Sequence record: PZ674596.1
Length of the DNA stretch: 64,000 bases
Strand: one strand, 5' to 3'
Origin: a phage
Shown: positions 10,543 to 64,000 of the stretch, piece after piece
Numbering within the stretch: the first letter of the stretch is position 1
Layout: each line of letters starts with the position of its first letter
Translations under genes and position numbers: made by a program
The notes under the pieces: generated by a model
The model's database searches: none
What the model was told of the DNA's origin: nothing
Seen by the model: the letters and a program-made list of their open reading frames with translations, nothing else

Positions 10543-10591
10543 TCGCAATTATCTTATTAAGAAAATAATTTGTTTAAAAGGATAAGAAAAC

Positions 10592-21938: not shown

Positions 21939-22044
21939 CATATGGTGGGGGATATCCCCACCTTCTCTTTGATTTGTAAGCCTTGTTTAAACACATAAGA
22001 TAACAACTTGTTTAAACGCACCAAAAAAGAAAAAGGAAAAACAC

Positions 22045-23264: not shown

Positions 23265-24134
23265 ATGAACTTTACCAAACTGACTGACCACCTGAAACTT
23301 GCCACCGATCGACTCATTGGATTTAAGCCAGAACCATATGAGTTGCATGAAGGCCATGGTGTAGCCACTGAAAGTATTTACAAGATGGTCGATCAGTTTC
23401 ATGAACTCTTCCAGCATCCGAGACGCGTTATGCCGACACCAGAGCTGCTTCGTCTCCGTGCAAGCCTGATTCATGAAGAAGCTGTAGTGGAAGGTATTCC
23501 AGCCGCAATGAATGGGGATATTGAGCAACTGCTGGATGCAATGGCCGACTTTTTATACGTTGGTGTTGGTACGATGGTCGCCATCAAAGGTGGTATTTCT
23601 ACCGGCATGACTTATTACACGCAGGAACAGAGCATTGATCGCTTTATGCAGACAATTTTTGTGCCTGGTAACACTGTTTTCGATGATATGGCAATGCCAT
23701 TTCAGGAAGCTCGTGAGGCGTCATGTATGCTCGAAGAGCTGGCAGATAAACTTGAGAAGAAGACTGTTAAGGATTCTGAGCTGATTCAGGAACTGCGCCG
23801 TGTAATGAACAAAATCTATGTGGCGTGCATGATGACTTATCGACTGGCTGATTTTCTCGGTATCAATGTCGTCGAGCTGGTTGGCGAAATTCATCGGTCC
23901 AACATGACAAAATTATGGCCTGCAGATGCCGAAGAGCGTCGCCATGCTGTGGCCAACTGCAAATACGACTCTTCTGACCTGGGATTTCGCCATGCTGATG
24001 GCACCGATAAGATGATCGGTTTTCGAATTTCCGATGGAAAGATTCTGAAGTCTCCAACCTATAGTGATGTCGATTTATCCTCCTTTGTTGAGCAAGCTAA
24101 AGCCTCAGCAATGTACGGAATGATCAAAAAATAA
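23265..24134 (+). CDS. putative MazG-like all-alpha nucleotide pyrophosphohydrolase
   Basis: 289 aa; EExxE..D-like acidic motifs (HEEAVVEGI..DIEQLLDAMAD; EELADKLEKK); tentative. Confidence 0.35.
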   Translation: MNFTKLTDHLKLATDRLIGFKPEPYELHEGHGVATESIYKMVDQFHELFQHPRRVMPTPELLRLRASLIHEEAVVEGIPAAMNGDIEQLLDAMADFLYVGVGTMVAIKGGISTGMTYYTQEQSIDRFMQTIFVPGNTVFDDMAMPFQEAREASCMLEELADKLEKKTVKDSELIQELRRVMNKIYVACMMTYRLADFLGINVVELVGEIHRSNMTKLWPADAEERRHAVANCKYDSSDLGFRHADGTDKMIGFRISDGKILKSPTYSDVDLSSFVEQAKASAMYGMIKK

Positions 24135-24228: not shown

Positions 24229-24305
24229 ATCTGTCTGGTCTTGTTCTCTCAATAAATGTAAACTCACGCAATGAATAAGTGGTTACTTATCTTTGTGAGG
24301 TTTTT

Positions 24306-25409
24306 GTGTCACTCCTTTTGAATCGTGAGCATACGAACGGTCAGGTAACAAACGCATCGTATGCAAAAGTTATTGAGACGGTGCTTAAAAGCGGCGTGCA
24401 GGCTGATGATCGCACAGGCACTGGTACTTTAAGCACCTGTTACGTTCCCTCTTACTACATGCTTACTGGTGGGACTGTGCCGCTTATTTCTGGAAAGGCG
24501 GTAAATCTTAAGCCACTGCTTGTCGAACTTGAGTGGTATCTGAAAGGCACGGGCAACATCCAATTTCTCAAGGATAACGGCGTTAAGATTTGGGATGCAT
24601 GGGCCGATGAGAATGGCGATTTGGGGCCGGTTTACGGTAAGCAGTGGCGTCGATGGGAAGATACCCGCATCGTGAGCCATAGTGAATATCTGAGCAAGAT
24701 CGCTACTTTCCGTGAACGCGGGTACAAAGTCGAGGGATACCTGGGTATCAGTGAAGATCGCGTAGTGCTGTCCCGTGAAATCGATCAGCTACAGCGTATT
24801 GTCGATACACTGCGCACGAACCCTACCGATCGTCGCATCATGCTTAACGCATGGAACGTAGGCGAGCTTGAGGATATGAAACTGCCACCTTGCCACTTTG
24901 TCTTCTCTTTGTGGAGTCGTGAGCTGGATTTTGAAACCCGTTTAACGATGGCAACTGACATTGGTCTTCAACACAGTCGCCTCGGTTACGAGTCTATCTA
25001 CACCAAGATGCTATACGATCTGGAGATAGACGGCAGTGTTACTGAAGCTGAACTGGATGAACTTGGAATCCCCAAACGCATCCTCAACTCCTGCCTCGTA
25101 CAGCGTAGCGTAGACACTTTTGTTGGTATGCCATTCAATATTGCTGGCTATGGCATTCTCACTCATTTTCTCGCGAAGATTACGGGTCACATGGCCGGTG
25201 CATTTGTGCATTTTGGCTTTGACGTGCATTTGTACAACAACCACATGGAAGGTGTGTGTGAGCTAATGCAACGACAGGCTCCAGAGCATTCAGATCCGGT
25301 CGTTATATTCCCTAATGAATGGTCTGAGCTGGATGATTTCAAATGGGACGAGATTCTTATTCTTGGCTATGCCCCTCTACCGTGGATCAAGGTTCCAGTG
25401 GCGGTGTGA
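24306..25409 (+). CDS. thyA: thymidylate synthase (ThyA family, with insertions)
   Basis: ThyA motifs DRTGTGT, DRRIMLNAWNVGEL, PPCH, GMPFNIAGY; start uncertain: placed at in-frame GTG 24306 after GAGG, since table GTG 24279 lies inside an operator-like palindrome. Confidence 0.8.
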   Translation: MSLLLNREHTNGQVTNASYAKVIETVLKSGVQADDRTGTGTLSTCYVPSYYMLTGGTVPLISGKAVNLKPLLVELEWYLKGTGNIQFLKDNGVKIWDAWADENGDLGPVYGKQWRRWEDTRIVSHSEYLSKIATFRERGYKVEGYLGISEDRVVLSREIDQLQRIVDTLRTNPTDRRIMLNAWNVGELEDMKLPPCHFVFSLWSRELDFETRLTMATDIGLQHSRLGYESIYTKMLYDLEIDGSVTEAELDELGIPKRILNSCLVQRSVDTFVGMPFNIAGYGILTHFLAKITGHMAGAFVHFGFDVHLYNNHMEGVCELMQRQAPEHSDPVVIFPNEWSELDDFKWDEILILGYAPLPWIKVPVAV

Positions 25410-43542: not shown

Positions 43543-44643
43543 TCACACTGCGCGGAATGCGATTTCGCCAGGTATTACTTCACCTTGCCAATACATTTGG
43601 GCAGCAACGCGATCTGCGAGGTCACGATAAATAGCTGTAAATTCGCTATCTGGACGACTAATAACGGTTGGTGTTCCGTTATCCAGATCTTCACGAAGAG
43701 AGATATGAAGTGGCATTTGGCCTAACAACTGCGTGTTGTATTTCTCGGCCAGTTTCTGTGCGCCACCGGTGCCAAAAATTGGCTCGTGATGACCGCAGTT
43801 ACTGCAAATATGCACACTCATGTTTTCAACGATACCCAGTACCGGCACTTCGACTTTTTCGAACATCACAATGCCTTTCTTCGCATCGATCAGCGCGATG
43901 TCTTGCGGCGTAGTTACCACAACCGCACCAGTTACAGGAATGTTCTGCGCCAGCGTCAACTGAATATCACCAGTGCCCGGCGGCATATCGAGAACAAGAT
44001 AGTCCAGATCAGGCCACAATGTTTCCTGCAACATCTGCATTAACGCCTTGCTCGCCATCGGTCCACGCCACACCATTGCATTGTCGTCGGTGACCAGATA
44101 ACCAATAGAGTTGGTTGCCAGGCCATGAGACATGATAGGTGCCATGTGAGTACCGTCAGGTGAGGTTGGACGTTGGTTTTCCGCGCCCAGCATGGTTGGA
44201 ATTGATGGACCATAGATATCGGCATCCAAAATACCAACTTTCGCACCTTCAGCAGCCAACGCCAGTGCCAGGTTTACCGCCGTGGAGGATTTACCCACGC
44301 CGCCCTTGCCTGAGCTGACGGCGATAATGTTCTTAACGCCATTAATGCCTGGTTGGTTTTTGACGCGCTTAAGCGTGGCAATGTTGTACGACAGCTTCCA
44401 GTCAATAGCCTTTGCGCCAGTGATACGGAGCAGATCACCACTACATTGCTCTTTCAGGTCTTCAAAAGGCTTATTCCACACGAAAGGCATGATTAGTTCG
44501 ACATGCAGTGTGTCATCCATCAACGCAACATGGTGTAACGCTTTAAGCGTAGTCAGGTTGTGTTTCAGGGTTGGGTGCTGAAAATTAGCCAGCGTACCGG
44601 CTACCATTGCTCTCAGGGCATCCGGCGATTTGGACTCGCTCAT
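43543..44643 (-). CDS. mrp: Fe-S cluster carrier ATPase Mrp/ApbC (host-type)
   Basis: 366 aa; deviant Walker A SGKGGVGKSS; matches my recollection of enterobacterial Mrp. Confidence 0.9.
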   Translation of the reverse strand: MSESKSPDALRAMVAGTLANFQHPTLKHNLTTLKALHHVALMDDTLHVELIMPFVWNKPFEDLKEQCSGDLLRITGAKAIDWKLSYNIATLKRVKNQPGINGVKNIIAVSSGKGGVGKSSTAVNLALALAAEGAKVGILDADIYGPSIPTMLGAENQRPTSPDGTHMAPIMSHGLATNSIGYLVTDDNAMVWRGPMASKALMQMLQETLWPDLDYLVLDMPPGTGDIQLTLAQNIPVTGAVVVTTPQDIALIDAKKGIVMFEKVEVPVLGIVENMSVHICSNCGHHEPIFGTGGAQKLAEKYNTQLLGQMPLHISLREDLDNGTPTVISRPDSEFTAIYRDLADRVAAQMYWQGEVIPGEIAFRAV

Positions 44644-44800
44644 CCCGTCTCCTTTATTTTAATTTGCGCAATTGTCGCCTTGTAGTGTACTCCAGCTACG
44701 ACATTTAATCATTTATGAGAAATGCTGTTATCACATGGCAGACATAAGGCCATTTTGTTACTATCAAGCCCCTTTTCACTACAAAGAAGTAATGCCTACT

Positions 44801-46834
44801 ATGACCCAAGTCGCGAAGAAAATTCTGGTGACGTGCGCGCTGCCGTACGCTAACGGCTCAATCCACCTCGGCCATATGCTGGAGCACATCCAGGCTGATG
44901 TCTGGGTTCGTTACCAGCGAATGCGCGGCCACGAGGTTAATTTCATCTGTGCCGACGATGCCCACGGTACGCCGATCATGTTGAAAGCACAGCAGCTTGG
45001 TATCACACCGGAGCAGATGATTGGCGAAATGAGTCAGGAACATCAGACTGATTTCGCAGGCTTTAACATCAGCTATGACAACTATCACTCGACGCACAGC
45101 GAAGAGAACCGTCAGTTGTCCGAGCTTATCTATACTCGCCTGAAAGAGAACGGTTTTATTAAAAACCGCACCATCTCTCAGCTGTACGACCCGGAAAAAG
45201 GCATGTTCCTGCCGGACCGTTTTGTAAAAGGCACATGCCCGAAATGTAAAGCGCCGGATCAATACGGCGATAACTGTGAAGTCTGCGGCGCTACTTACAG
45301 CCCGACTGAACTGATCGAGCCGAAATCGGTAGTTTCTGGTGCTACGCCGGTAATGCGTGATTCCGAACACTTCTTCTTTGATCTGCCTTCTTTCAGCGAA
45401 ATGTTGCAGGCATGGACCCGCAGCGGTGCGTTGCAGGAGCAGGTGGCAAACAAAATGCAGGAGTGGTTTGAATCTGGCCTGCAACAGTGGGATATCTCCC
45501 GCGATGCGCCGTACTTCGGTTTTGAAATTCCGAACGCACCGGGCAAATATTTCTACGTCTGGCTGGACGCGCCGATTGGCTACATGGGTTCCTTCAAGAA
45601 TCTGTGCGACAAACGCGGCGACACTACCAGCTTCGACGAATACTGGAAGAAAGACTCCACCGCCGAGCTGTACCACTTCATCGGTAAAGATATCGTTTAC
45701 TTCCACAGCCTGTTCTGGCCTGCCATGCTGGAAGGCAGCAACTTCCGCAAGCCGACCAACCTGTTTGTTCACGGCTATGTGACGGTGAACGGCGCGAAGA
45801 TGTCCAAGTCTCGCGGCACCTTTATTAAAGCCAGCACCTGGCTGAATCATTTTGACGCCGACAGCCTGCGTTACTACTACACTGCGAAACTCTCTTCGCG
45901 CATTGATGATATCGATCTCAATCTGGAAGATTTCGTTCAGCGTGTGAATGCCGATATCGTTAACAAAGTGGTTAACCTGGCCTCCCGTAATGCAGGCTTT
46001 ATCAACAAGCGTTTTGACGGCGTGCTGGCAAGCGAACTGGCTGACCCGCAACTGTACAAAACCTTTACTGATGCCGCTGAAGTGATTGGCGAAGCATGGG
46101 AAAGCCGCGAATTTGGCAAAGCTATCCGTGAAATCATGGCACTGGCTGACCTGGCTAACCGCTATGTTGATGAACAGGCTCCGTGGGTGGTGGCGAAGCA
46201 GGAAGGACGCGATGCCGATCTGCAGGCGATTTGCTCTATGGGCATTAACCTGTTCCGCGTGCTGATGACGTACCTGAAACCGGTACTGCCGAAACTGACT
46301 GAACGTGCAGAAGCATTCCTGAATACAGAACTGACCTGGGATGGTATCCAGCAACCGCTGCTGGGCCATAAAGTGAATCCGTTCAAGGCACTGTATAACC
46401 GTATCGATATGAAACAGGTGGAAGCACTGGTGGAAGCATCCAAAGAAGAAGTGAAAGCCACAGCTGCACCGGTAACTGGCCCACTGGCTGACGACCCGAT
46501 TCAGGAAACCATCACCTTTGACGACTTCGCCAAAGTTGACCTGCGTGTGGCGCTGATTGAAAACGCGGAGTTTGTCGAAGGTTCTGACAAACTGCTTCGC
46601 CTGACGCTGGATCTCGGTGGTGAAAAGCGTAATGTCTTCTCAGGCATCCGTTCCGCTTATCCAGATCCACAGGCACTGATTGGTCGTCACACCATTATGG
46701 TGGCTAACCTGGCACCACGTAAAATGCGCTTCGGTATCTCTGAAGGCATGGTGATGGCTGCTGGCCCCGGCGGGAAAGATATCTTCCTGTTAAGCCCGGA
46801 TGCTGGTGCTAAACCTGGCCACCAGGTTAAGTAA
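44801..46834 (+). CDS. metG: methionyl-tRNA synthetase (host-type)
   Basis: 677 aa from ATG 44801 (table ORF has spurious 43-aa extension); [16 protein letters not shown], Zn knuckle CPKCK..CEVCG; near-identical to enterobacterial MetG as I recall it. Confidence 0.95.
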
Positions 46835-56169: not shown

Positions 56170-57303
56170 TTAATTGGCGTTTTCGTTCTTCTCTTTTTTG
56201 CTAATTTCATCACATGCAAGGTTCATTATGTCTATGTTTTCTTGTTTTTGAAGGTTGCCGACAATTTTTTGGCGCAATTCATAAAATCGCTCGCGTGGTA
56301 TAGCTTCCTTGTTGCCGCTGATGTGAAGTATTGCGTGACAGCTAGGGCAGACGGCAATCAGATCTGTTTTTGGGTTCACGCTTCGTGCACCTTCGCCTTG
56401 TGAAAGTGGGATGATGTGGTGAGCGTGTAGCAGCGTTTTCGTTTCTTTACCGTCAATTTCCTTGCCGTATATTTCCGACATCGTTCTGCAACATAGTTGA
56501 CACCTGTAGTCTGCGTTTGCCAGAACGTCATTCCTTAACCCGGATACGCGGCTACGATGTTGCGACTGGATTAATCTTGTTTCGCCCTCTATATATTCCT
56601 CAACTTCTTCTTTCTGGAGGTCGTAGCTGATTTCTTCTTGAGTTACGTTGTCTTCTGCTTTGGCTGAGACTGCATGAATCTCTTTCTTATTCAACGAGAA
56701 AGGTGATTTGAGAGCATCAGCACTGTTTTGCCCTCTTGAATGTTGTGATTTTAGAGCAAGATTGTAAATCTCTTTTAATTTGACATTTTTTTTGTTTGTT
56801 CTAAAGAACTTTCTGCTCTCTACTTGTGAGATAATCCCTGATTCTATATATTGAATTAACACACGAAGAAAATGTTCTATAGATTTTTTACTTTTGAATG
56901 AAAAGGAATAGCCGACTTTCTTTCTCAACTCGTTTTCGCTAAAGAACTCTTTCAGATTTTCGTCGTCAGTCAGGTTAATGGTTGCACCTGCCCAGGTTGA
57001 AGCTTCTACAATTTCAGGAATAACCTCTTGGTCGCCAAGCTGATTGTTTATTTCATCCAGCATTTTAAAGACTGTCAATATTGGATACGGATTCGTCACC
57101 AGACCGTTAGAGGATTTCGTTCTAGGCCCATTCTTTTTTATAATGATGGGGTGCTGTTGAGAAGTTTTCTTTAATTGTAAATAATAAAGGTTTATATTAT
57201 TATTCGTTGATATACCTGCCGGTTTTATCAAGGATAATTTTTCATCACATGCAATATCATCTATTATATTTCTTAGGTCACACGTTTTTATAAATTGACG
57301 CAT
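56170..57303 (-). CDS. HNH-nuclease-domain protein with unknown N-terminal domain
   Basis: 377 aa; C-terminal CQLCC...HAHHIIPLS...CPSCH HNH signature; low GC; RBS GGAGGA lies in a CCTCCGAA/TTCGGAGG hairpin. Confidence 0.6.
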   Translation of the reverse strand: MRQFIKTCDLRNIIDDIACDEKLSLIKPAGISTNNNINLYYLQLKKTSQQHPIIIKKNGPRTKSSNGLVTNPYPILTVFKMLDEINNQLGDQEVIPEIVEASTWAGATINLTDDENLKEFFSENELRKKVGYSFSFKSKKSIEHFLRVLIQYIESGIISQVESRKFFRTNKKNVKLKEIYNLALKSQHSRGQNSADALKSPFSLNKKEIHAVSAKAEDNVTQEEISYDLQKEEVEEYIEGETRLIQSQHRSRVSGLRNDVLANADYRCQLCCRTMSEIYGKEIDGKETKTLLHAHHIIPLSQGEGARSVNPKTDLIAVCPSCHAILHISGNKEAIPRERFYELRQKIVGNLQKQENIDIMNLACDEISKKEKNENAN

Positions 57304-58356: not shown

Positions 58357-59916
58357 CTAATCTCGTTTCAGAATTCCAAAATCGAATGCGCCATCAACAG
58401 GCAATACACCTTCCGCAAAGCCAGGTGTGGTGTCGATGATGTGTTTTCGCTCATAAGAGTGAGACAACAGGTATTTGTTGCTAGTGTCAATGAAATCAGT
58501 GATAAAACACACGTTTGCCTGATTCTTCTTGGCTCGTAAGCCACGACCGACACGCTGCCTCATTTCAACTTCTGCTTTCCCACCACCAGCCAGAATGACC
58601 GCACCAACGCTTGGCACATCAACACCGACATCCAGAATAGTCGAGCCTATTAAAACATCTATGTCGCCAGACGCTAAACTGTTCAGCTTTGCTTGCCTTG
58701 TCGACTGGTTCGATTCCCCATAAATGAAGTCAACTCTAAGGCCGGACTCTTTCATCATTTCCATCAGGATTTGCCCGTGGCGTTTAAGACGAACCAGAGT
58801 CATACAATTGAGAGAATGTTGCTTATAGAGCAATGCTTCGCGAACAATGGCCTCATTACGTCCCAAATTATACACGATCCCCAACTGATAAGCCTTTTGG
58901 TAGGCAGTGCTCATACCTACTCTAAAATTGAGGTATTTGTTGGCAAGTTCTGCCTTGATTCTGGCCTCGTCCGGCTTGTAGGCAACTTTATGATAAAGGA
59001 AGTATGGTTTTGCCAGAATGCCTCTATCAATCAGGTACTTTTCTGTGACTTTAATTTCAATTCGCCCGGCCACCGCCATCAGGCGCATGTTGGCTTCCGT
59101 CGAATCCTTCATGAACGGCGTGGCTGTAAGCGCCAGACGATAGTCTGCGTTCACACATAATCTGGCGATGTCATAGAAATTTGAGCCTGAAGACTCATGC
59201 GCCTCTTCCAGAATAAGAAGAGAGACACTTGAAAGGAAGCGTTTCACCAACTCCCGACGTTTGAGGTGGTAGCTTTTCTTATCTGGTGTTGCATCGCGTG
59301 GTGGTTCTTCGAGGAAACTTGCAAGAGTTTGAACTGTAGCGACGTTGATATGTCGTGATACCTGGAACTCACCCGAGCCAATGACTCCAACCTTTTGGTC
59401 CTTTAACCACGGTTCGCCATTTTCGGCGCGGTAGTCGATGGATCTCTGGAAGTTTTCGGCCATTTGAAACATCAGAACAGAGCGGGTTGTTAAAAATAAT
59501 GTCATTCGACCGATACGTGCAGCTGCTTTGCAGGCAACGTTAGATTTCCCACCACCAGTAGCGATCTGGGCAATCATCATTCCCTCGCGAACTAGTGTTT
59601 CCACAGCCTGATCCTGATATGCATAATCAGGATTGTATGGGAATGGGTTAACCGCCGGATTTGGCTTTCCAAGCGCCGGGGCTTTGTCTTTGCGGATATG
59701 AACACATTTGATGCCCGCCTTGTTCAAGTTCGCCGCTACAGGCTTGGCAAAGCCAGCAGGGAACGAGTTTTTACTCCAGTTGAACATCGTGCTTGTGCCC
59801 TTCCAGTCGCCAGTCTCGACTTCGTAGCTCAACATTTGCTGCACCAGTTGCTTTACCTTGTCATCTGCGCCAGAAATAAGCGCATTTACTGCGTTAGATA
59901 CAATCCGAACAGTCAT
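58357..59916 (-). CDS. SF2 helicase (UvsW-like, tentative)
   Basis: 519 aa; motif I ATGGGKS, motif II ILEEAHE, motif III TATP, motif VI QRVGRGLR; N-terminal region loosely resembles UvsW N-domain. Confidence 0.65.
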   Translation of the reverse strand: MTVRIVSNAVNALISGADDKVKQLVQQMLSYEVETGDWKGTSTMFNWSKNSFPAGFAKPVAANLNKAGIKCVHIRKDKAPALGKPNPAVNPFPYNPDYAYQDQAVETLVREGMMIAQIATGGGKSNVACKAAARIGRMTLFLTTRSVLMFQMAENFQRSIDYRAENGEPWLKDQKVGVIGSGEFQVSRHINVATVQTLASFLEEPPRDATPDKKSYHLKRRELVKRFLSSVSLLILEEAHESSGSNFYDIARLCVNADYRLALTATPFMKDSTEANMRLMAVAGRIEIKVTEKYLIDRGILAKPYFLYHKVAYKPDEARIKAELANKYLNFRVGMSTAYQKAYQLGIVYNLGRNEAIVREALLYKQHSLNCMTLVRLKRHGQILMEMMKESGLRVDFIYGESNQSTRQAKLNSLASGDIDVLIGSTILDVGVDVPSVGAVILAGGGKAEVEMRQRVGRGLRAKKNQANVCFITDFIDTSNKYLLSHSYERKHIIDTTPGFAEGVLPVDGAFDFGILKRD

Positions 59917-59998
59917 AAACCTCTTTCCTTAGTGCCTTTTGTATGTTATTTGGCTATTATAATAAGTAAGTGATTACTTAGTGGATTGTAGCAATAAA

Positions 59999-60679
59999 AT
60001 GGATGTAAAAATCACGATTTTGCAGGTTGATGTTGCCAACCTTCGCCCGAATACCTGGAACACCAATTCGGTTGGTGCGCAGAATTTTGAAAAACTGAAA
60101 GGTTCTATCGAAAAATTGGGCTTTTTTAAGCCAATTTTGGCTCGTGAACTTGAAGATGGATTTTTTGAAATCCTCGGCGGCGAACATCGCTGGCGTGCTG
60201 CTATTGAGCAAGGAATTTCAACGGTTCCGGTGCTTTCTGTGGGCAAAATTAGCGATGTCGTAGCTAAACAGATGTCACTGGTGGACAACGAGCGATACGG
60301 TGAAGACGACCAAATCGCATTGCAACGCTTCATTGAAGAAATTCAGTCAGAACTTGACTATCAACTGTCTGAAATCGCCCCGTATGACGACGAAATCTCG
60401 ATGGTTTTAGCAAAAGAGGCGGCAATCGACCTTGAAGCACTGGAGGCGTTGTCTCGTGGTAGTGATGAGCCTGTCGATACCGACAAACGAGAGAAAACCG
60501 AACGTGTGGGTGCGGAACATCAGACCATGCGCTTCAAAGTAACTTTCGATGCGTCAGATCGTGTTGCAGAAACCATAAAAAACATCATCAAAGAGCAGGC
60601 TATTAACACCGGTAATGAAATGGAGAACGCTGGTGAGGCTCTGGTGTGGCTGGTCGACTACTACAAGGAGCGTATGTAA
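59999..60679 (+). CDS. ParB N-terminal-domain (ParB/Srx-like) protein 1
   Basis: GGEHRWRAA ParB box-II-like motif; start uncertain (ATG 59999 or GTG 59981). Confidence 0.5.
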   Translation: MDVKITILQVDVANLRPNTWNTNSVGAQNFEKLKGSIEKLGFFKPILARELEDGFFEILGGEHRWRAAIEQGISTVPVLSVGKISDVVAKQMSLVDNERYGEDDQIALQRFIEEIQSELDYQLSEIAPYDDEISMVLAKEAAIDLEALEALSRGSDEPVDTDKREKTERVGAEHQTMRFKVTFDASDRVAETIKNIIKEQAINTGNEMENAGEALVWLVDYYKERM

Positions 60680-61347
60680 TGACCAAAAAGTTTGAAATCG
60701 TATATCGCGACCCGGCAGATCTTATTCCCTATGAGATGAATGCCAAAAAGCATGATGAACAGCAGATCCGAGATCTGGCCGCAGCCATTAAAAAGCGCGG
60801 ATTTGACCAGCCAATTACGGTCGATAAGAACGACGTAATTATTACTGGCCACGGCCGCCGTGAGGCTGCAATTTTTGCTGGACTTGAGCGCGTACCGGTT
60901 ATTGTTCGCGATGATCTCAGTGATGACGAGGTTCGTGCGAAGCGCCTTGAAGATAACCGACTTGCCAGCATTGATTACGATGCAATTAAGCTACAGAAAG
61001 AGCTTGAGTCGCTTGTTCTGGACGATATCGAGGTTTTCGGCTTTGAAGAGCGTGAGTTGAATGTTCTCGTTGGCAGTATGACAGAAGAAATGGACACCGA
61101 TTCGCTAGTTATCGATCTTGGCGAAGAAACTAAACGACAGAAGGATGAACACACCGAGATCAGTCGTGAAGTTGCAGCGGAAGAAGTACGTGTTGTCGAC
61201 GTATTGGGCTTTAAAACGCTCCCTGCTGGCTCTGCCATTGTTGTTGGTGATTTGCTTGCCCACATGGAAGAAATGACGGGAGAAAGCGGGGTAGACGCAT
61301 TTGTGGCATATGCGGAGAAGATCTCTTCCGGGGAGATGGCTGCATGA
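60679..61347 (+). CDS. ParB N-terminal-domain (ParB/Srx-like) protein 2
   Basis: 222 aa from ATG overlapping upstream stop; ITGHGRREAA motif; acidic C-terminal half. Confidence 0.5.
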   Translation: MTKKFEIVYRDPADLIPYEMNAKKHDEQQIRDLAAAIKKRGFDQPITVDKNDVIITGHGRREAAIFAGLERVPVIVRDDLSDDEVRAKRLEDNRLASIDYDAIKLQKELESLVLDDIEVFGFEERELNVLVGSMTEEMDTDSLVIDLGEETKRQKDEHTEISREVAAEEVRVVDVLGFKTLPAGSAIVVGDLLAHMEEMTGESGVDAFVAYAEKISSGEMAA

Positions 61348-62009
61348 GCAAATACATCATCAACGTATCGTTTCAGACACGCGTAAATAAAACCACGCGC
61401 ACGTTGGAAATCGCTGAGTCGTTCGGGCTTGGCCTGGACGAAAAAGAGTGGACGCTTTACGACAATCTGGAGCTGGAAGTGAAGCAGGGCGATGTGGTGT
61501 ACATCACCGGCCAATCCGGTTCTGGCAAATCCGTTGTGCTGCGCGAGTTGCAACGCCAGATGAAGGATGAAGGGCTTTCTGTAGCCTCCATCGATGATTT
61601 TACCTTCGATAATGAGGTTAACGTCATCGATCAGTTGGGCAAAACGACCAGTGATGCGCTTGGGTTGTTATCTATGGCTGGTCTGAACGATGCATATCTG
61701 TTTGTTCGCAAGCCTTCTGAAATGTCAGACGGCCAGAAATATCGTCTCAAGATTGCCAAACTGATTGAGTCAGGCGCTAAAGTGTGGGCTGCTGACGAGT
61801 TCGGCGCTGTTCTCGACCGTGTAACCGCTCAGGTTGTGGCGTCTAACCTCCAGCGTGCCGCTCGAAAGGTTGGTGCGACGGTAATGGTGGCGACGACTCA
61901 CGAAGACCTGAAGAACGCGCTGCGCCCGGATATGCAGATCACCAAGCACTACAAAGAACGCGTGAAGGTGGAATATCACAATGGTAGTCACGATGAGGTC
62001 CATTCATGA
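61344..62009 (+). CDS. soluble ABC-type ATPase
   Basis: 221 aa; Walker A GQSGSGKS, signature-like SDGQKYRL, Walker B VWAADEF, H-loop TTHED; no membrane domain. Confidence 0.55.
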   Translation: MSKYIINVSFQTRVNKTTRTLEIAESFGLGLDEKEWTLYDNLELEVKQGDVVYITGQSGSGKSVVLRELQRQMKDEGLSVASIDDFTFDNEVNVIDQLGKTTSDALGLLSMAGLNDAYLFVRKPSEMSDGQKYRLKIAKLIESGAKVWAADEFGAVLDRVTAQVVASNLQRAARKVGATVMVATTHEDLKNALRPDMQITKHYKERVKVEYHNGSHDEVHS

Positions 62010-62896
62010 CGGACATCATCATTAAACGCTACCGCCCTGAAGAGTTTCCGCGTCATCTGGACTTTCTGGAGCGAATGACTGTTACAAAGGGAACTGTAGA
62101 GGACTGGCACGCTCTTAAGTCGCTTCACTACAAAACAGACGGCAAACCTTTCGCGCCAACTTACTATCGCTGCGAACTTGATGACCGTCTGGTGGGCGTC
62201 GTGGTTATGGCTTACCCGAAACTACTGTTGGCACCTCGCCACCGCATGTTTCCTAAGTTGAAACCAACCACTAATACCACCGTGGCTAACCAGTACTGGG
62301 GTCGGTACGTGAATAACAACTTTGCGGTGATCAGTCGCTCAGTTGTGGATACTCAGTATCGTGGCGTAGGCGTCTCTTATCGAATGATTAACCTGGTTAG
62401 CAGGATGCATGACCGGCCAATCATTGAGATCCAGTCCTCGATGAGCAAATACAATCCCTTCGCCATGAAAGCAGGGTTTAAGTTCATCCGCCCTGAGCGA
62501 CCGAAGAGCTATGAAAGTGCACTGCGTGTATTCCAGCGCCATTTCCGTTCTGACCCGGGTAATAACGAGGCGATCGTCAAAGAGTTGTTCGCAATGAGCG
62601 AGTCTCGTCGTCGCCGTGCACTGCGTGATCTGGTGGCGGACTACCACAAGAACAGTTCCCTGGCAAAAGCTGGGCGGAATCGTGGCACGACGATTCAGGA
62701 CATTGCCGACAGTCTGGTGGACGAGGCCAGCATTGTGAAGCTGCTCAAGGACATTCACAACCTGAGCTTTACGTCTCCGTTGTATGGTGTGTACCGAAAC
62801 CCTGACTTTGGCCGTCGACTGCCTGACACGCTGCCACTGCTGGCATTCGACAAACAACCTTTGGATAAACCGTTAGAAATTGCTTTACCGGCATAA
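62006..62896 (+). CDS. hypothetical protein (possible GNAT-like fold)
   Basis: 296 aa; RSVVDTQYRGVGVSYRMINLV resembles acetyl-CoA-binding motif; overlaps ATPase stop. Confidence 0.4.
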   Translation: MTDIIIKRYRPEEFPRHLDFLERMTVTKGTVEDWHALKSLHYKTDGKPFAPTYYRCELDDRLVGVVVMAYPKLLLAPRHRMFPKLKPTTNTTVANQYWGRYVNNNFAVISRSVVDTQYRGVGVSYRMINLVSRMHDRPIIEIQSSMSKYNPFAMKAGFKFIRPERPKSYESALRVFQRHFRSDPGNNEAIVKELFAMSESRRRRALRDLVADYHKNSSLAKAGRNRGTTIQDIADSLVDEASIVKLLKDIHNLSFTSPLYGVYRNPDFGRRLPDTLPLLAFDKQPLDKPLEIALPA

Positions 62897-62905
62897 GGAT
62901 TTGCC

Positions 62906-63172
62906 ATGACGTTAACCGACAAACAAAAGGACATCATCAAAACGCTCAATCTCGGTTATGAGCGAGGTCATCTACTTGATCTGGACGAATTGCTTGAAGT
63001 TTTGCCGTACAAGACAACAAAGCAAAGTATCCAGTTCTCAATTCGCGCTCTGATAAAAAAGGGGCTGGTGGAGAAAGGGCATACGCGCCAACGCAGTGAC
63101 AATCGCTATCACCGCCGGACTCTTGGGTTAACCACTTTAGGTCGAGCCAAAGCGAAGTTACTGGTGATGTAA
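62906..63172 (+). CDS. small basic protein, possible winged-helix DNA-binding
   Basis: 88 aa; helix-turn-wing-like segment; last gene of operon. Confidence 0.4.
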   Translation: MTLTDKQKDIIKTLNLGYERGHLLDLDELLEVLPYKTTKQSIQFSIRALIKKGLVEKGHTRQRSDNRYHRRTLGLTTLGRAKAKLLVM

Positions 63173-63196
63173 TCGGTCTGGGAGCTTATTTAAAGA

Positions 63197-63251
63197 CCTG
63201 CTTCTGTATATATAAATAATAAGTAACTTATTAAATATATACGGAAGCAGG
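63197..63251. repeat. large AT-rich palindrome (copy 2 of 2)
   Basis: CCTGCTTCTGTATATATAAATAATAAGTAACTTATTAAATATATACGGAAGCAGG; centre is ATAAGT-A-ACTTAT. Confidence 0.7.
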
Positions 63252-63368
63252 CTTAGTAAGACATGCCCAGACCTAATTAAACACCCCAGAAAACAAGTTG
63301 GTTAGCATACGCAGTAAACAAGTTGTTTTAGAGCGCATGGACGCGCTCTGTGTGTTTTAGAGGGATCT

Positions 63369-64000
63369 ATGACGGTCGAAAAAGACGAGGTAAAAACTCG
63401 CCTGACACCAGCGGAGTGGGCCGAAGCTGAAGCCAAATGGACGTCAGGCGAATATACACTCTCAAAGCTGGAGGAAGAGTACGGCATTCGTCGTGAAACA
63501 CTCTCCAGACATTTCAAAAAGCGAGGATTAGAGAAAGGCGCGGACTCTGTTGGGAAGATGGTTCGTGAGTCTCTTAAATCTGACGCAGAGCTTCGCGCTA
63601 AAGCTCGTGCGGAAAAGATAGAAGAACGTCGTACACGTTATGACGGCTGGGCGTATGCGTTGGGGCAGATGGTGATGGTCGAAGTCACTACGGCCAAACG
63701 TGAGGGTAAGCCTTTAGGGGCGATTGAGGATTCTCTCAAGAGCTTACAGAGAGCCAGTAATACCCTTGCAAAATGCTTTGAAGTTTCGTCCAAAGCATTG
63801 GGCATGGATCATGCGGAAAATGACGAGGAAGAAATTCCGAACCTGGTATTTGGTGAGCTTACGCCTTCCCAGGTGGCGAAATTACGTCAGGAAGACGACG
63901 AGCCTGAAATCATCGATGACGAATTGCTTGAGACGTTGGAAGAAGAAGCTCTAAGCGAATTTGATGCGACAGATGATGGAAGTGAAGGGGAGGACGAATA
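63369..64000 (+). CDS. hypothetical protein, 3' end outside window (possible DNA-binding / terminase small subunit-like)
   Basis: Open frame from ATG 63369 to window end (not in ORF table); very acidic downstream part; preceded by AAACAAGTTGTTTT motifs. Confidence 0.4.
   Translation, partial: MTVEKDEVKTRLTPAEWAEAEAKWTSGEYTLSKLEEEYGIRRETLSRHFKKRGLEKGADSVGKMVRESLKSDAELRAKARAEKIEERRTRYDGWAYALGQMVMVEVTTAKREGKPLGAIEDSLKSLQRASNTLAKCFEVSSKALGMDHAENDEEEIPNLVFGELTPSQVAKLRQEDDEPEIIDDELLETLEEEALSEFDATDDGSEGEDE

Follow-up and report, generated by a model that had tools for sequence, protein, structure and literature searches.

The 64,000-nt stretch of DNA analyzed here (sequence record PZ674596.1, hereafter the window) derives from an SSU5/pHCM2-type phage-plasmid of Escherichia coli and contains, at 59999-63172, an operon coding for two ParB-like proteins (ParB-1 and ParB-2), a soluble ABC-type ATPase, a GNAT-fold protein and a small protein resembling winged helix-turn-helix (wHTH) proteins. 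We found that this operon belongs to a kind of cassette so far predicted but never characterized, of which it is a variant with separate ABC and GNAT genes, two ParBs and a wHTH gene, and that the arrangement of a ParB gene, ABC-GNAT and terminase genes is a common phage cassette. That the operon is a late-expressed system for acylating phage DNA has, in our judgment, an even chance of being correct; what we infer here is that DNA is the target, together with the chemistry, its timing and a role against restriction. The idea of acylation by ABC-GNAT proteins is already known to specialists. New in this study are the generality of the linkage among ParB, ABC-GNAT and terminase, the ancestry of ParB-2, the acyl-donor and ASCH accessory genes, and the fusion to a DNA polymerase.

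Organization of the operon

The operon consists of the following genes.

59999-60679, plus strand: ParB-1 (Pfam ParB_N, E = 3e-13; phrog_723)
60679-61347, plus strand: ParB-2 (Pfam ParB_N; phrog_930)
61344-62009, plus strand: ABC-type ATPase, soluble (Pfam ABC_tran)
62006-62896, plus strand: GNAT-fold protein, 296 aa (homology to the C-terminal half of fused ABC-GNAT proteins)
62906-63172, plus strand: small wHTH-like protein, 88 aa (phrog_900; weak Lrs14/Sta1/LexA-type matches)

An initial annotation, made by a model from the letters alone, had proposed a tightly coupled operon of these five genes, and all five open reading frames (ORFs) are present on the plus strand where it placed them. 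Its statement that the genes overlap by 1-4 nt applies to the first four, which are joined by TAATG (1-nt overlap, ParB-1/ParB-2) and twice by ATGA (4 nt, ParB-2/ATPase and ATPase/GNAT), and not to the fifth: the wHTH gene is closely spaced without overlap, behind a 9-nt spacer with AGGA. Its assignments of the proteins were borne out as well. Both ParB-like proteins pass the Pfam ParB_N model with motifs that hold on alignment, the ATPase passes ABC_tran and has the classical GQSGSGKS rather than a deviant Walker A motif, and the GNAT-like protein has the acyl-CoA motif A in addition to its homology to the C-terminal half of the fused family. For the wHTH protein, the proposal agrees with matches to wHTH families and with conservation in the clade, although all these matches are weak. 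The start of ParB-1 is most likely ATG 59999 and not the in-frame GTG 59981, 18 nt upstream, in keeping with the annotation of phage Cyrano and RefSeq plasmids; ParB-2 starts at ATG 60679.

The ATPase and GNAT genes as a split ABC-GNAT fusion

Judged by homology, the ATPase gene and the GNAT gene represent the two halves, here split, of a fused ABC-GNAT protein with the COG2401/MK0520 architecture. The window ATPase passes Pfam ABC_tran with 50.1 bits (cut-off 25) and carries Walker A GQSGSGKS (residues 56-63), a signature-like MSDGQ (127-131), Walker B D151-E152 and H186. It is 40% and 48% identical to the N-terminal domains of the fused proteins P0168 and P0205, any transporter being far more distant, and it matches positions 1-218 of the hidden Markov model built for the fused family, with E = 4e-86. 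It falls far under every NCBIfam transporter cut-off, and NCBIfam gave nothing specific. We rejected a role as an ABC transporter subunit because no membrane-protein family is found in the operon or among its conserved neighbors and because the partner is a GNAT, to which the ATPase is fused in relatives; the database name 'ABC transporter' for these ATPases is a misannotation.

The 296-aa protein is the counterpart of the C-terminal half of the fusion, with a GNAT fold at residues ~20-165 and a conserved helical C-terminal domain at 170-296. Invariant residues of its family include W34, H41, Y42, K43, R78, H79, R111 and D115 as well as R119, G122, Y125, N129 and E141. The acyl-CoA motif A (QYRGVGV) is intact and, like a set of basic and aromatic residues, does not vary within the family. 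A PDB sequence search with the protein gave no match.

Searching with a profile of the GNAT-like family yielded 893 cluster representatives, many of them 450-500 aa long with an N-terminal ABC_tran and a C-terminal GNAT-like domain, an architecture that annotation pipelines name 'ABC-type ATPase fused to a predicted acetyltransferase domain'. Overall, the ABC-GNAT family is present in > 1,000 viral contigs. Long fusions bear Nitrososphaerota/Thermoproteota names, and P0184, the only archaeal-named fusion with a readable context (two contigs), lies in a provirus directly 3' of TerL. When 80 IMG/VR loci with the long fusion were examined, TerL proved to be the closest large ORF on the upstream side in 38/68. 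In the same loci (L014-L093), the fused gene ends <= 300 bp from the contig end, pointing outward, in 23/80 and within 2.5 kb of it in 49/80, while < 2.5 kb is left on the 5' side in 3/80; often the contig stops exactly at the stop codon of the gene, suggesting that proviruses were trimmed at a gene boundary and that these are not physical genome ends.

Other members of the family are found in contexts of DNA transactions. A 1260-aa PolB-ABC-GNAT triple fusion of one lineage, in which ABC-GNAT is attached to the exonuclease and polymerase domains of a family B DNA polymerase, occurs in 35 collection blocks and is situated inside a phage replication module with Prim-Pol, RecA and a 5'-3' exonuclease (L008/L009 10001-13783). 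Further ABC-GNAT genes adjoin Pol III alpha; an intein interrupts the ABC domain of one copy, and a TFIIB tail is attached to one archaeal form. Together with the TerL neighbors, these contexts speak for DNA acylation.

In distant members of the clade that has the split genes, the ABC and GNAT genes are both always present, with 0-3 small ORFs between them. Among the products of these ORFs are DUF2829, Phage_gp49_66 and RyR-domain proteins (RHEph10 gp080 = L095 5393-5695; L005 8961-9999; L006 9598-9997). Such small unrelated ORFs at the ABC/GNAT junction imply that moron insertion is tolerated and that translational coupling is not required.

ParB-1, ParB-2 and the wHTH protein

Both ParB proteins exceed the ParB_N gathering cut-off of 26.3 bits (ParB-1, 49.9; ParB-2, 35.2), and ParB_N is the sole Pfam domain in each. 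Both can be aligned with the CTPase domains of Spo0J, ParB and Noc; their scores are far under the TIGR00180 and Noc cut-offs. ParB-1 is composed of a ParB/Srx N-terminal domain (GGEHRWRAA, DNERY), an acidic linker and a C-terminal domain; ParB-2 has a ParB/Srx N-terminal domain (GHGRREAA, EDNR), an acidic linker with an FGFEEREL motif and a C-terminal domain. According to the alignment of the paralogs, the C-terminal domain of ~50 residues is common to both. No HTH domain was found in either protein by Pfam, NCBIfam or PDB sequence searches, parS sites not having been searched for, and the C-terminal domain had no Pfam match. A guess that the latter is a ribbon-helix-helix domain was abandoned when a PDB profile search gave only a weak HhH-like match to topoisomerase V (E = 0.28). 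For ParB-1, AlphaFold gave a poor model (pLDDT 60 overall and < 50 in the C-terminal domain) because the 120 homologs among the matches listed were all 85-100% identical.

Given that the single ParBs next to ABC-GNAT in Streptococcus prophage 315.4 and Pasteurella phage Pmp13 resemble ParB-2 (E = 1e-26 and 1e-20, respectively) much more than ParB-1 (about 1e-9), and that a GF(E/S)xxE(L/I) motif is common to ParB-2 and the single ParB partners, ParB-2 is the ancestral partner of ABC-GNAT, and ParB-1 an extra paralog of the SSU5/nickie clade. In ParB-2, this conserved motif is the predicted docking element. Full-length homologs of ParB-1 in cultured phages are confined to the 31 records that also carry the split GNAT gene, namely SSU5-like, Pseudomonas nickie-like, Rhizobium RHEph10-like, Stenotrophomonas and Xanthomonas phages.

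The 88-aa protein is probably a winged-helix DNA binder. It matches wHTH families only weakly (Lrs14/Sta1, LexA_DNA_bind) and is conserved across the SSU5/nickie clade, with homologs in L004-L006 and nickie at E = 1e-19 to 2e-7. It may serve in modification, regulation or packaging.

ParB, ABC-GNAT and terminase genes form a common phage cassette

The region 59900-64000 of the window shares 99.8% identity with plasmid NZ_CP117002, 98-99% with phages CMS-2020a, PhiR41_1 and Cyrano, and 85% with Salmonella phage SSU5; 792 plasmid records match it, from Klebsiella, Escherichia, Enterobacter, Yersinia, Salmonella and other genera. Beyond these close relatives, the order of the five core genes is kept in phages nickie and RHEph10, where a few small ORFs interrupt it, and likewise in relatives from other environments that are 42-46% identical. 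Downstream of the operon lies a TerS-like gene, the first of the packaging/structural block, which is followed by TerL, portal and then capsid genes in the near-identical records L002 and L003; the initial annotation had noted a possible packaging gene in this place.

Outside the clade, five phages encode a shorter fused ABC-GNAT (~365-400 aa) directly 3' of a ParB gene that abuts or overlaps it: Gordonia phage Axumite, Gordonia/Rhodococcus phage Jace, Streptococcus prophage 315.4, Leptospira phage LE3 and Pasteurella phage Pmp13. TerS/TerL usually lie 3' of the ParB and ABC-GNAT genes in these phages. Counting the SSU5/nickie clade, at least six unrelated phage lineages have a ParB-2-like gene directly beside ABC-GNAT. 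A metagenomic scan of IMG/VR revealed the shorter fused family in at least 590 viral contigs, of which the best 80 loci were scored. When a ParB neighbor was defined as a ParB_N ORF on the same strand ending -60 to +400 bp upstream, such an ORF abutted ABC-GNAT in 59/69 loci with room upstream, and a TerL-like ORF started <= 4 kb downstream in 34/58 loci with enough downstream sequence. An earlier impression from ParB-less archaeal-type loci, that the link with ParB is clade-specific, was overturned by these bacterial-phage loci.

The initial annotation could not name a module that matched the operon. Such a module does exist, as a split version of the COG2401/MK0520 ABC-GNAT (PMC7824862) within the common cassette of ParB, ABC-GNAT and terminase, and the examination of gene neighborhoods that the annotation had proposed revealed the conserved order in the SSU5/nickie clade and the recurrent adjacency to ParB described above.

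Accessory genes of sibling cassettes

Pfam families were counted among 137 ORFs just downstream of the cassette. The list includes DUF3850, which we take to be related to ASCH.

DUF5681: 7 of 137 downstream ORFs
Aspartate decarboxylase: 4 of 137
CoA-transferase III: 4 of 137
ASCH: 4 of 137
DUF3850 (ASCH-like): 3 of 137
TerS families Terminase_4, Sf6_terminase and Terminase_2: 3, 2 and 1 of 137, respectively

In Jace and in four metagenomic loci, a PanD-like aspartate decarboxylase gene stands next to a homolog of Jace gp88, as a conserved pair immediately 3' of ParB-ABC-GNAT (Jace gp87-gp88 = L107 4559-5670; L138, L140, L161 and L178). Matching counts and ORF sizes indicate that the gp88-like proteins are probably the four CoA-transferase-III matches, and the pair suggests that beta-alanyl-CoA is the donor for the GNAT in these phages. 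A Formyl_trans_N-like protein is encoded 3' of ABC-GNAT in three phages unrelated to one another, Burkholderia phage phiE255 (gp29-gp30, L104 3426-5158), Axumite (genes 2-3, L099 603-2452) and a Porphyromonas phage (L103 3393-4996); that of Axumite is annotated as 'tRNA-methyltransferase'. In the Mu-like phiE255, the ABC-GNAT and Formyl_trans_N-like pair follows the tail-fiber genes, in the slot occupied by mom in Mu. Streptococcus prophage 315.4 (L100 3354-5358) encodes, in order, ParB, the ABC ATPase, an apparently separated or frameshifted GNAT fragment, an ASCH protein and TerL. ASCH proteins hydrolyze N4-acylcytosines (PMC6972931). Enzymes of the decarboxylase, CoA-transferase and formyltransferase kinds produce or modify acyl donors, and together with the ASCH proteins they point, in the sibling cassettes, to acyl transfer onto a nucleic-acid base.

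Proposed function of the operon and alternative explanations

We propose the following model for the window operon, in which phage DNA is acylated late and after replication. The catalytic unit would consist of the ABC ATPase and the GNAT protein, which are the separated parts of an ancient viral ABC-GNAT fusion. Its GNAT half would take an acyl group from acyl-CoA, here probably acetyl-CoA or another common acyl-CoA, and transfer it to the exocyclic amine of a base in double-stranded phage DNA, while the ABC half may use ATP binding and hydrolysis for clamping or base exposure, analogously to the ATPase domain of TmcA. ParB-2, aided in this clade by ParB-1, would load or hold the enzyme on DNA or switch it on, as do the ParB-like partners of phage thymine dioxygenases and DpdA. 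The position of the cassette at the head of the packaging operon implies that progeny genomes are marked just before or during packaging, and the acyl mark would make them resistant to host restriction, in the way that Mom protects phage Mu. A more specific form of the model, which we regard as tentative and on the doubtful side, is that SSU5-family phage-plasmids, including the Klebsiella, Enterobacter, Salmonella and Yersinia relatives, carry an undescribed acyl mark on virion DNA, e.g., an N4-acylcytosine or N6-acyladenine derivative, installed by a three-part writer of ParB, ABC ATPase and CoA-dependent GNAT, with sibling cassettes adding other groups (beta-alanyl-derived where aspartate decarboxylase and a CoA-transferase are linked, formylated where a formyltransferase is). 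In that case, an entire family of DNA hypermodifications, extending from archaeal viruses to enterobacterial phage-plasmids, would await exploration.

Several observations weigh against DNA acylation. A ParB neighbor is absent from archaeal-type proviruses, pT24, phiE255, P12024S and VmeM-32. The window operon has neither an acyl-donor nor an ASCH gene; a single-sequence search, whose negative outcome is weak evidence of absence, found no ASCH gene in the whole window. The ATPase is closer in sequence to transporter-type cassettes than to the SMC/Rad50/UvrA DNA-binding branch. A modified base, which is not detectable from sequence, has not been reported for SSU5-type phages in the searchable literature. 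Finally, the linkage to terminase genes fits a packaging role equally well.

Such a role would be that of a packaging accessory, in which the ParBs recognize or nick DNA near pac/cos and ABC-GNAT aids terminase assembly or genome-end processing without acylating DNA. Some ParB/Srx proteins are indeed nucleases (PMC12839542). The cassette lies just 5' of TerS/TerL in many unrelated phages and directly 3' of TerL in archaeal-type proviruses, and between the operon and the TerS-like gene of the window there is a large palindrome, at which the SSU5 and Cyrano records are linearized. However, these phages possess their own TerS-like and TerL genes, ABC-GNAT is also found in replication modules and after tail genes, far from terminase, and the slot before terS is the usual place of phage DNA methyltransferases. 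In addition, the invariant features of the GNAT catalytic site and the linked acyl-donor enzymes argue for real acyl transfer, and we consider the packaging explanation quite improbable. The acyl transfer could instead be directed at protein, with the same ParB/ABC/GNAT machine modifying TerS, portal, a histone-like protein or a host factor. This alternative, which we rate as unlikely but deserving of attention, is in line with the intact CoA-type motif A, the adjoining terminase and portal genes, and the precedent of phage GNATs that modify host RNA polymerase (PMC7824862), such as Rac of phiKMV, which acetylates it. It gives no reason, however, for bespoke acyl-donor enzymes or for ASCH proteins acting on acylated cytosines, and it leaves unexplained both the DNA polymerase fusion and a ParB partner of the kind that activates DNA-modifying enzymes.

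Two further explanations concern RNA and plasmid maintenance. The combination of an ATPase with a GNAT parallels TmcA, the maker of N4-acetylcytidine, and the operon might encode an ATP-dependent RNA (tRNA) acyltransferase that retunes translation late in infection. ASCH proteins erase tRNA N4-acetylcytidine (bioRxiv 10.64898/2026.02.27.708502), a methionyl-tRNA synthetase gene is present in the window, and tRNA genes stand beside the module in nickie. Nevertheless, Pfam detected no TmcA-type domain, and the ParB partner, the polymerase fusion and the terminase linkage all point to DNA, so that RNA is a very unlikely substrate. As for plasmid partition or ParB-type silencing with an ABC ATPase in place of ParA, public annotation does name the ParBs partition proteins, and two ParB_N proteins with ParB-CTPase-like motifs on a low-copy phage-plasmid would suit that function. 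Yet the same operon is found in the non-plasmid phages nickie and RHEph10 and in Stenotrophomonas and Xanthomonas phages, and the cassette is found in integrated prophages and in small temperate or lytic phages; the ParBs have no HTH/parS-binding domain, and the ATPase is of the ABC type, not ParA. Moreover, a ParA-type gene (MipZ/AAA_31/CbiA) with a small downstream gene exists elsewhere on the near-identical plasmid. Because of these non-plasmid carriers, the lack of ParA and HTH, and the separate ParA-type gene, we reject partition as already largely refuted and barely credible, in agreement with the initial annotation, which had excluded an ordinary parAB locus; plasmid stability, one of the deletion phenotypes that it suggested, is an unlikely one. 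The pair at NZ_CP117002.1 32228-33255, outside the window, consists of a 222-aa ParA-type ATPase (MipZ/AAA_31/CbiA) and a 117-aa ORF and is likely the true partition cassette of the phage-plasmid.

Sites flanking the operon

The following features flank the operon.

58357-59916, minus strand: DEAD/ResIII (UvsW-like) helicase (Pfam ResIII, DEAD, Helicase_C)
59917-59998, no strand assigned: divergent intergenic region, 82 bp (sequence; motif search)
63196-63254, no strand assigned: near-perfect palindrome, ~59 bp, center 63225 (inverted-repeat search)
63291-63328, no strand assigned: 13-bp element AAACAA-N-TTGTTT, which recurs throughout the window, here in two copies 5' of the TerS-like gene
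63329-63350, plus strand: GC-rich hairpin with a T-run, terminator-like, dividing the operon from the TerS-like gene
63369-64000, plus strand: TerS-like DNA-binding protein, 210 aa (phrog_867, E = 7e-100 for the identical protein of the near-identical record L002); the gene overruns the window end by 1 nt

The UvsW-like helicase gene is the divergent neighbor of the operon throughout the clade and has the same position in relatives L004-L007, nickie and RHEph10; whether it is part of the system is uncertain. The intergenic region between the two presumably carries the promoter or operator of the operon. A simple scan of this region found no consensus sigma-70 site. It contains AATAAGTAAGTGATT, which a motif search related to the core of the palindrome downstream of the operon. 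This core, AATAAGTAA, has a second copy with 2 mismatches at 59961, upstream of ParB-1.

The palindrome, the two 13-bp elements and the terminator-like hairpin are all located in the 196-bp gap that separates the operon from the TerS-like gene. In GenBank, the linear records of SSU5 and Cyrano stop within the palindrome, at window position 63233/63234, and candidate roles for the palindrome are bidirectional termination of transcription, binding of a protein and formation of a genome terminus. The AAACAA-N-TTGTTT palindrome has 40 matches in the window, counting both strands, compared with 5.3 +/- 2.3 expected. Its copies are at 22001, 33003, 33732, 42981, 46919, 46970, 48410, 49592, 50076, 50979, 51743, 58329, 63291 and 63316, with weaker ones at 10563, 34446 and 37354. 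They are mostly 20-40 nt 5' of ORF starts, none being 5' of ParB-1, and the element looks like a phage-wide operator or promoter element. It is present in the close relatives L002 and L003 and missing from distant relatives, which indicates lineage-specific regulation outside the cassette.

Other genes of the window and its relatives

The window contains two host-like genes: a full methionyl-tRNA synthetase (44672-46834; Pfam tRNA-synt_1g, E = 5e-166) and, divergent to it on the minus strand, an ApbC/Mrp-type Fe-S carrier ATPase (43543-44643). An HNH endonuclease ORF of 377 aa (56170-57303, minus strand) occupies the lowest-GC stretch of the window (0.38), between a lipoprotein gene and a 199-aa gene. 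The counterpart gap in Cyrano (L001) is ~1 kb shorter, and close relatives have different genes there; the region looks like a variable hotspot. With regard to nucleotide metabolism, the window encodes a thymidylate-synthase homolog of 376 aa (24279-25409), whose Pfam model is matched in two separated stretches, a MazG-like PRA-PH protein (23265-24134), NrdAB and, according to the annotation of the near-identical plasmid, DHFR. Relatives have genes for a PF04447 dATP/dGTP pyrophosphohydrolase-like protein and dCMP deaminase near the module (L006 1573-1998; L004 4695-5183; L005 3108-3569).

Significance

If DNA is acylated by this system, it would be only the second kind of GNAT-based DNA base modification after Mom, and the first to depend on an ATPase together with a ParB partner. 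The scale of the family is considerable, its carriers being > 1,000 viral contigs and ~790 sequenced enterobacterial plasmids of the SSU5 supergroup, including the pHCM2 and pMT1 groups. It would also bear on restriction escape and on the host-to-host spread of SSU5-type phage-plasmids, add a further job to the ParB-CTPase fold, and flag a source of sequencing and cloning artifacts. The prediction of acylation is directly testable, since culturable E. coli and Salmonella phages (SSU5, Cyrano and PhiR41_1) carry the system. Whatever the target, thousands of 'ABC transporter' and 'partition protein ParB' labels are wrong and need correction.

Comparison with known systems

The source of the DNA-acylation prediction is reportedly the study of Iyer et al. 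2013 (NAR). An ABC-coupled GNAT family was predicted by Iyer, Aravind and colleagues to acylate a DNA nucleobase, with Tenacibaculum phage pT24 as an example (PMC7824862), and the pT24 protein is a detectable homolog of the window family. The window unit shares with the COG2401 family homologous ABC (40-48% identity), GNAT and C-terminal domains, the domain order and the viral context. It differs in that it is split into two genes with a 4-nt overlap and is preceded by two ParB paralogs and followed by a wHTH gene; its GNAT has a long C-terminal helical domain, whereas the ~365-aa bacterial-phage fusions do not. Acyl transfer to a DNA base by the ABC-GNAT family is a prediction, and we found no experimental work on the ParB/ABC/GNAT cassette in the searchable literature. 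The operon was not recognized as a known defense system, PADLOC giving only generic matches (the ParB N-terminal domain of ParB-methyltransferase fusions and the P-loop).

The ParB_N domains, with their GxxRxxA-like and (E/D)N-x-x-R-like motifs, are reminiscent of type I ParABS. Unlike that system, the operon has an ABC_tran ATPase with GQSGSGKS instead of the deviant Walker A of ParA (KGGxxK[ST]), lacks an HTH/parS-binding domain and occurs also in non-plasmid phages. TmcA/NAT10 likewise combines an NTPase with a GNAT and acylates a nucleic-acid base from acetyl-CoA, but its ATPase is of the helicase type and not ABC, its substrate is RNA, and it shares no accessory domain with the window unit, in which Pfam found no DUF1726, helicase-type ATPase, GNAT_acetyltr_2 or tRNA_bind_2.

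Mom of phage Mu is a GNAT that moves glycine from Gly-tRNA to the N6 of adenine in double-stranded DNA; it is expressed very late and serves restriction evasion (PMC13219725). The window GNAT family resembles Mom in being phage-encoded, in its late gene position, in the presence of the phiE255 ABC-GNAT in the mom slot, and in two sequence features, a W...HY motif and an Arg that is conserved where beta-4 ends, which were aligned with Mom W48, H58, Y59 and R111. In hhalign comparisons with the Mom alignment (A2, probability 8.8%, E = 0.0038; A1, probability 0.6%), low-confidence alignments placed W34, H41, Y42, R111, D115 and Y125 opposite Mom W48, H58, Y59, R111, D149 and Y159, respectively, and Mom R151 opposite Q117, which is not conserved in the GNAT family; these seven Mom residues matter for its catalysis. 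Membership in the Mom family was rejected: there was no PF25680 match at E <= 0.1, and the likeness beyond the fold is statistically weak. Unlike Mom, the window family retains the acyl-CoA pyrophosphate-binding motif Q/R-x-x-G-x-G, and whereas Mom works alone, the window GNAT has a separate ATPase and ParB partners.

The closest parallels to the ParBs are found among partners of other DNA-modifying enzymes. A subclass of DNA thymine dioxygenases strictly requires activation by phage ParB-like proteins, which have an N-terminal NTPase-fold domain and a C-terminal domain and lack a DNA-binding domain (PMC13229309), and DpdB is a ParB-like ATPase required together with DpdA (as summarized in PMC12839542). 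Like the 5mYOX-associated ParBs and DpdB, the window ParBs have a ParB N-terminal NTPase fold and a C-terminal domain without a canonical DNA-binding domain, and they adjoin a modifying enzyme in phage genomes, in a pairing that recurs across lineages. The differences are that the partner in the window is an ABC-GNAT, not a dioxygenase or transglycosylase, and that there are two paralogous ParBs. By analogy with these systems, ParB may act as the activator or partner of the window ABC-GNAT.

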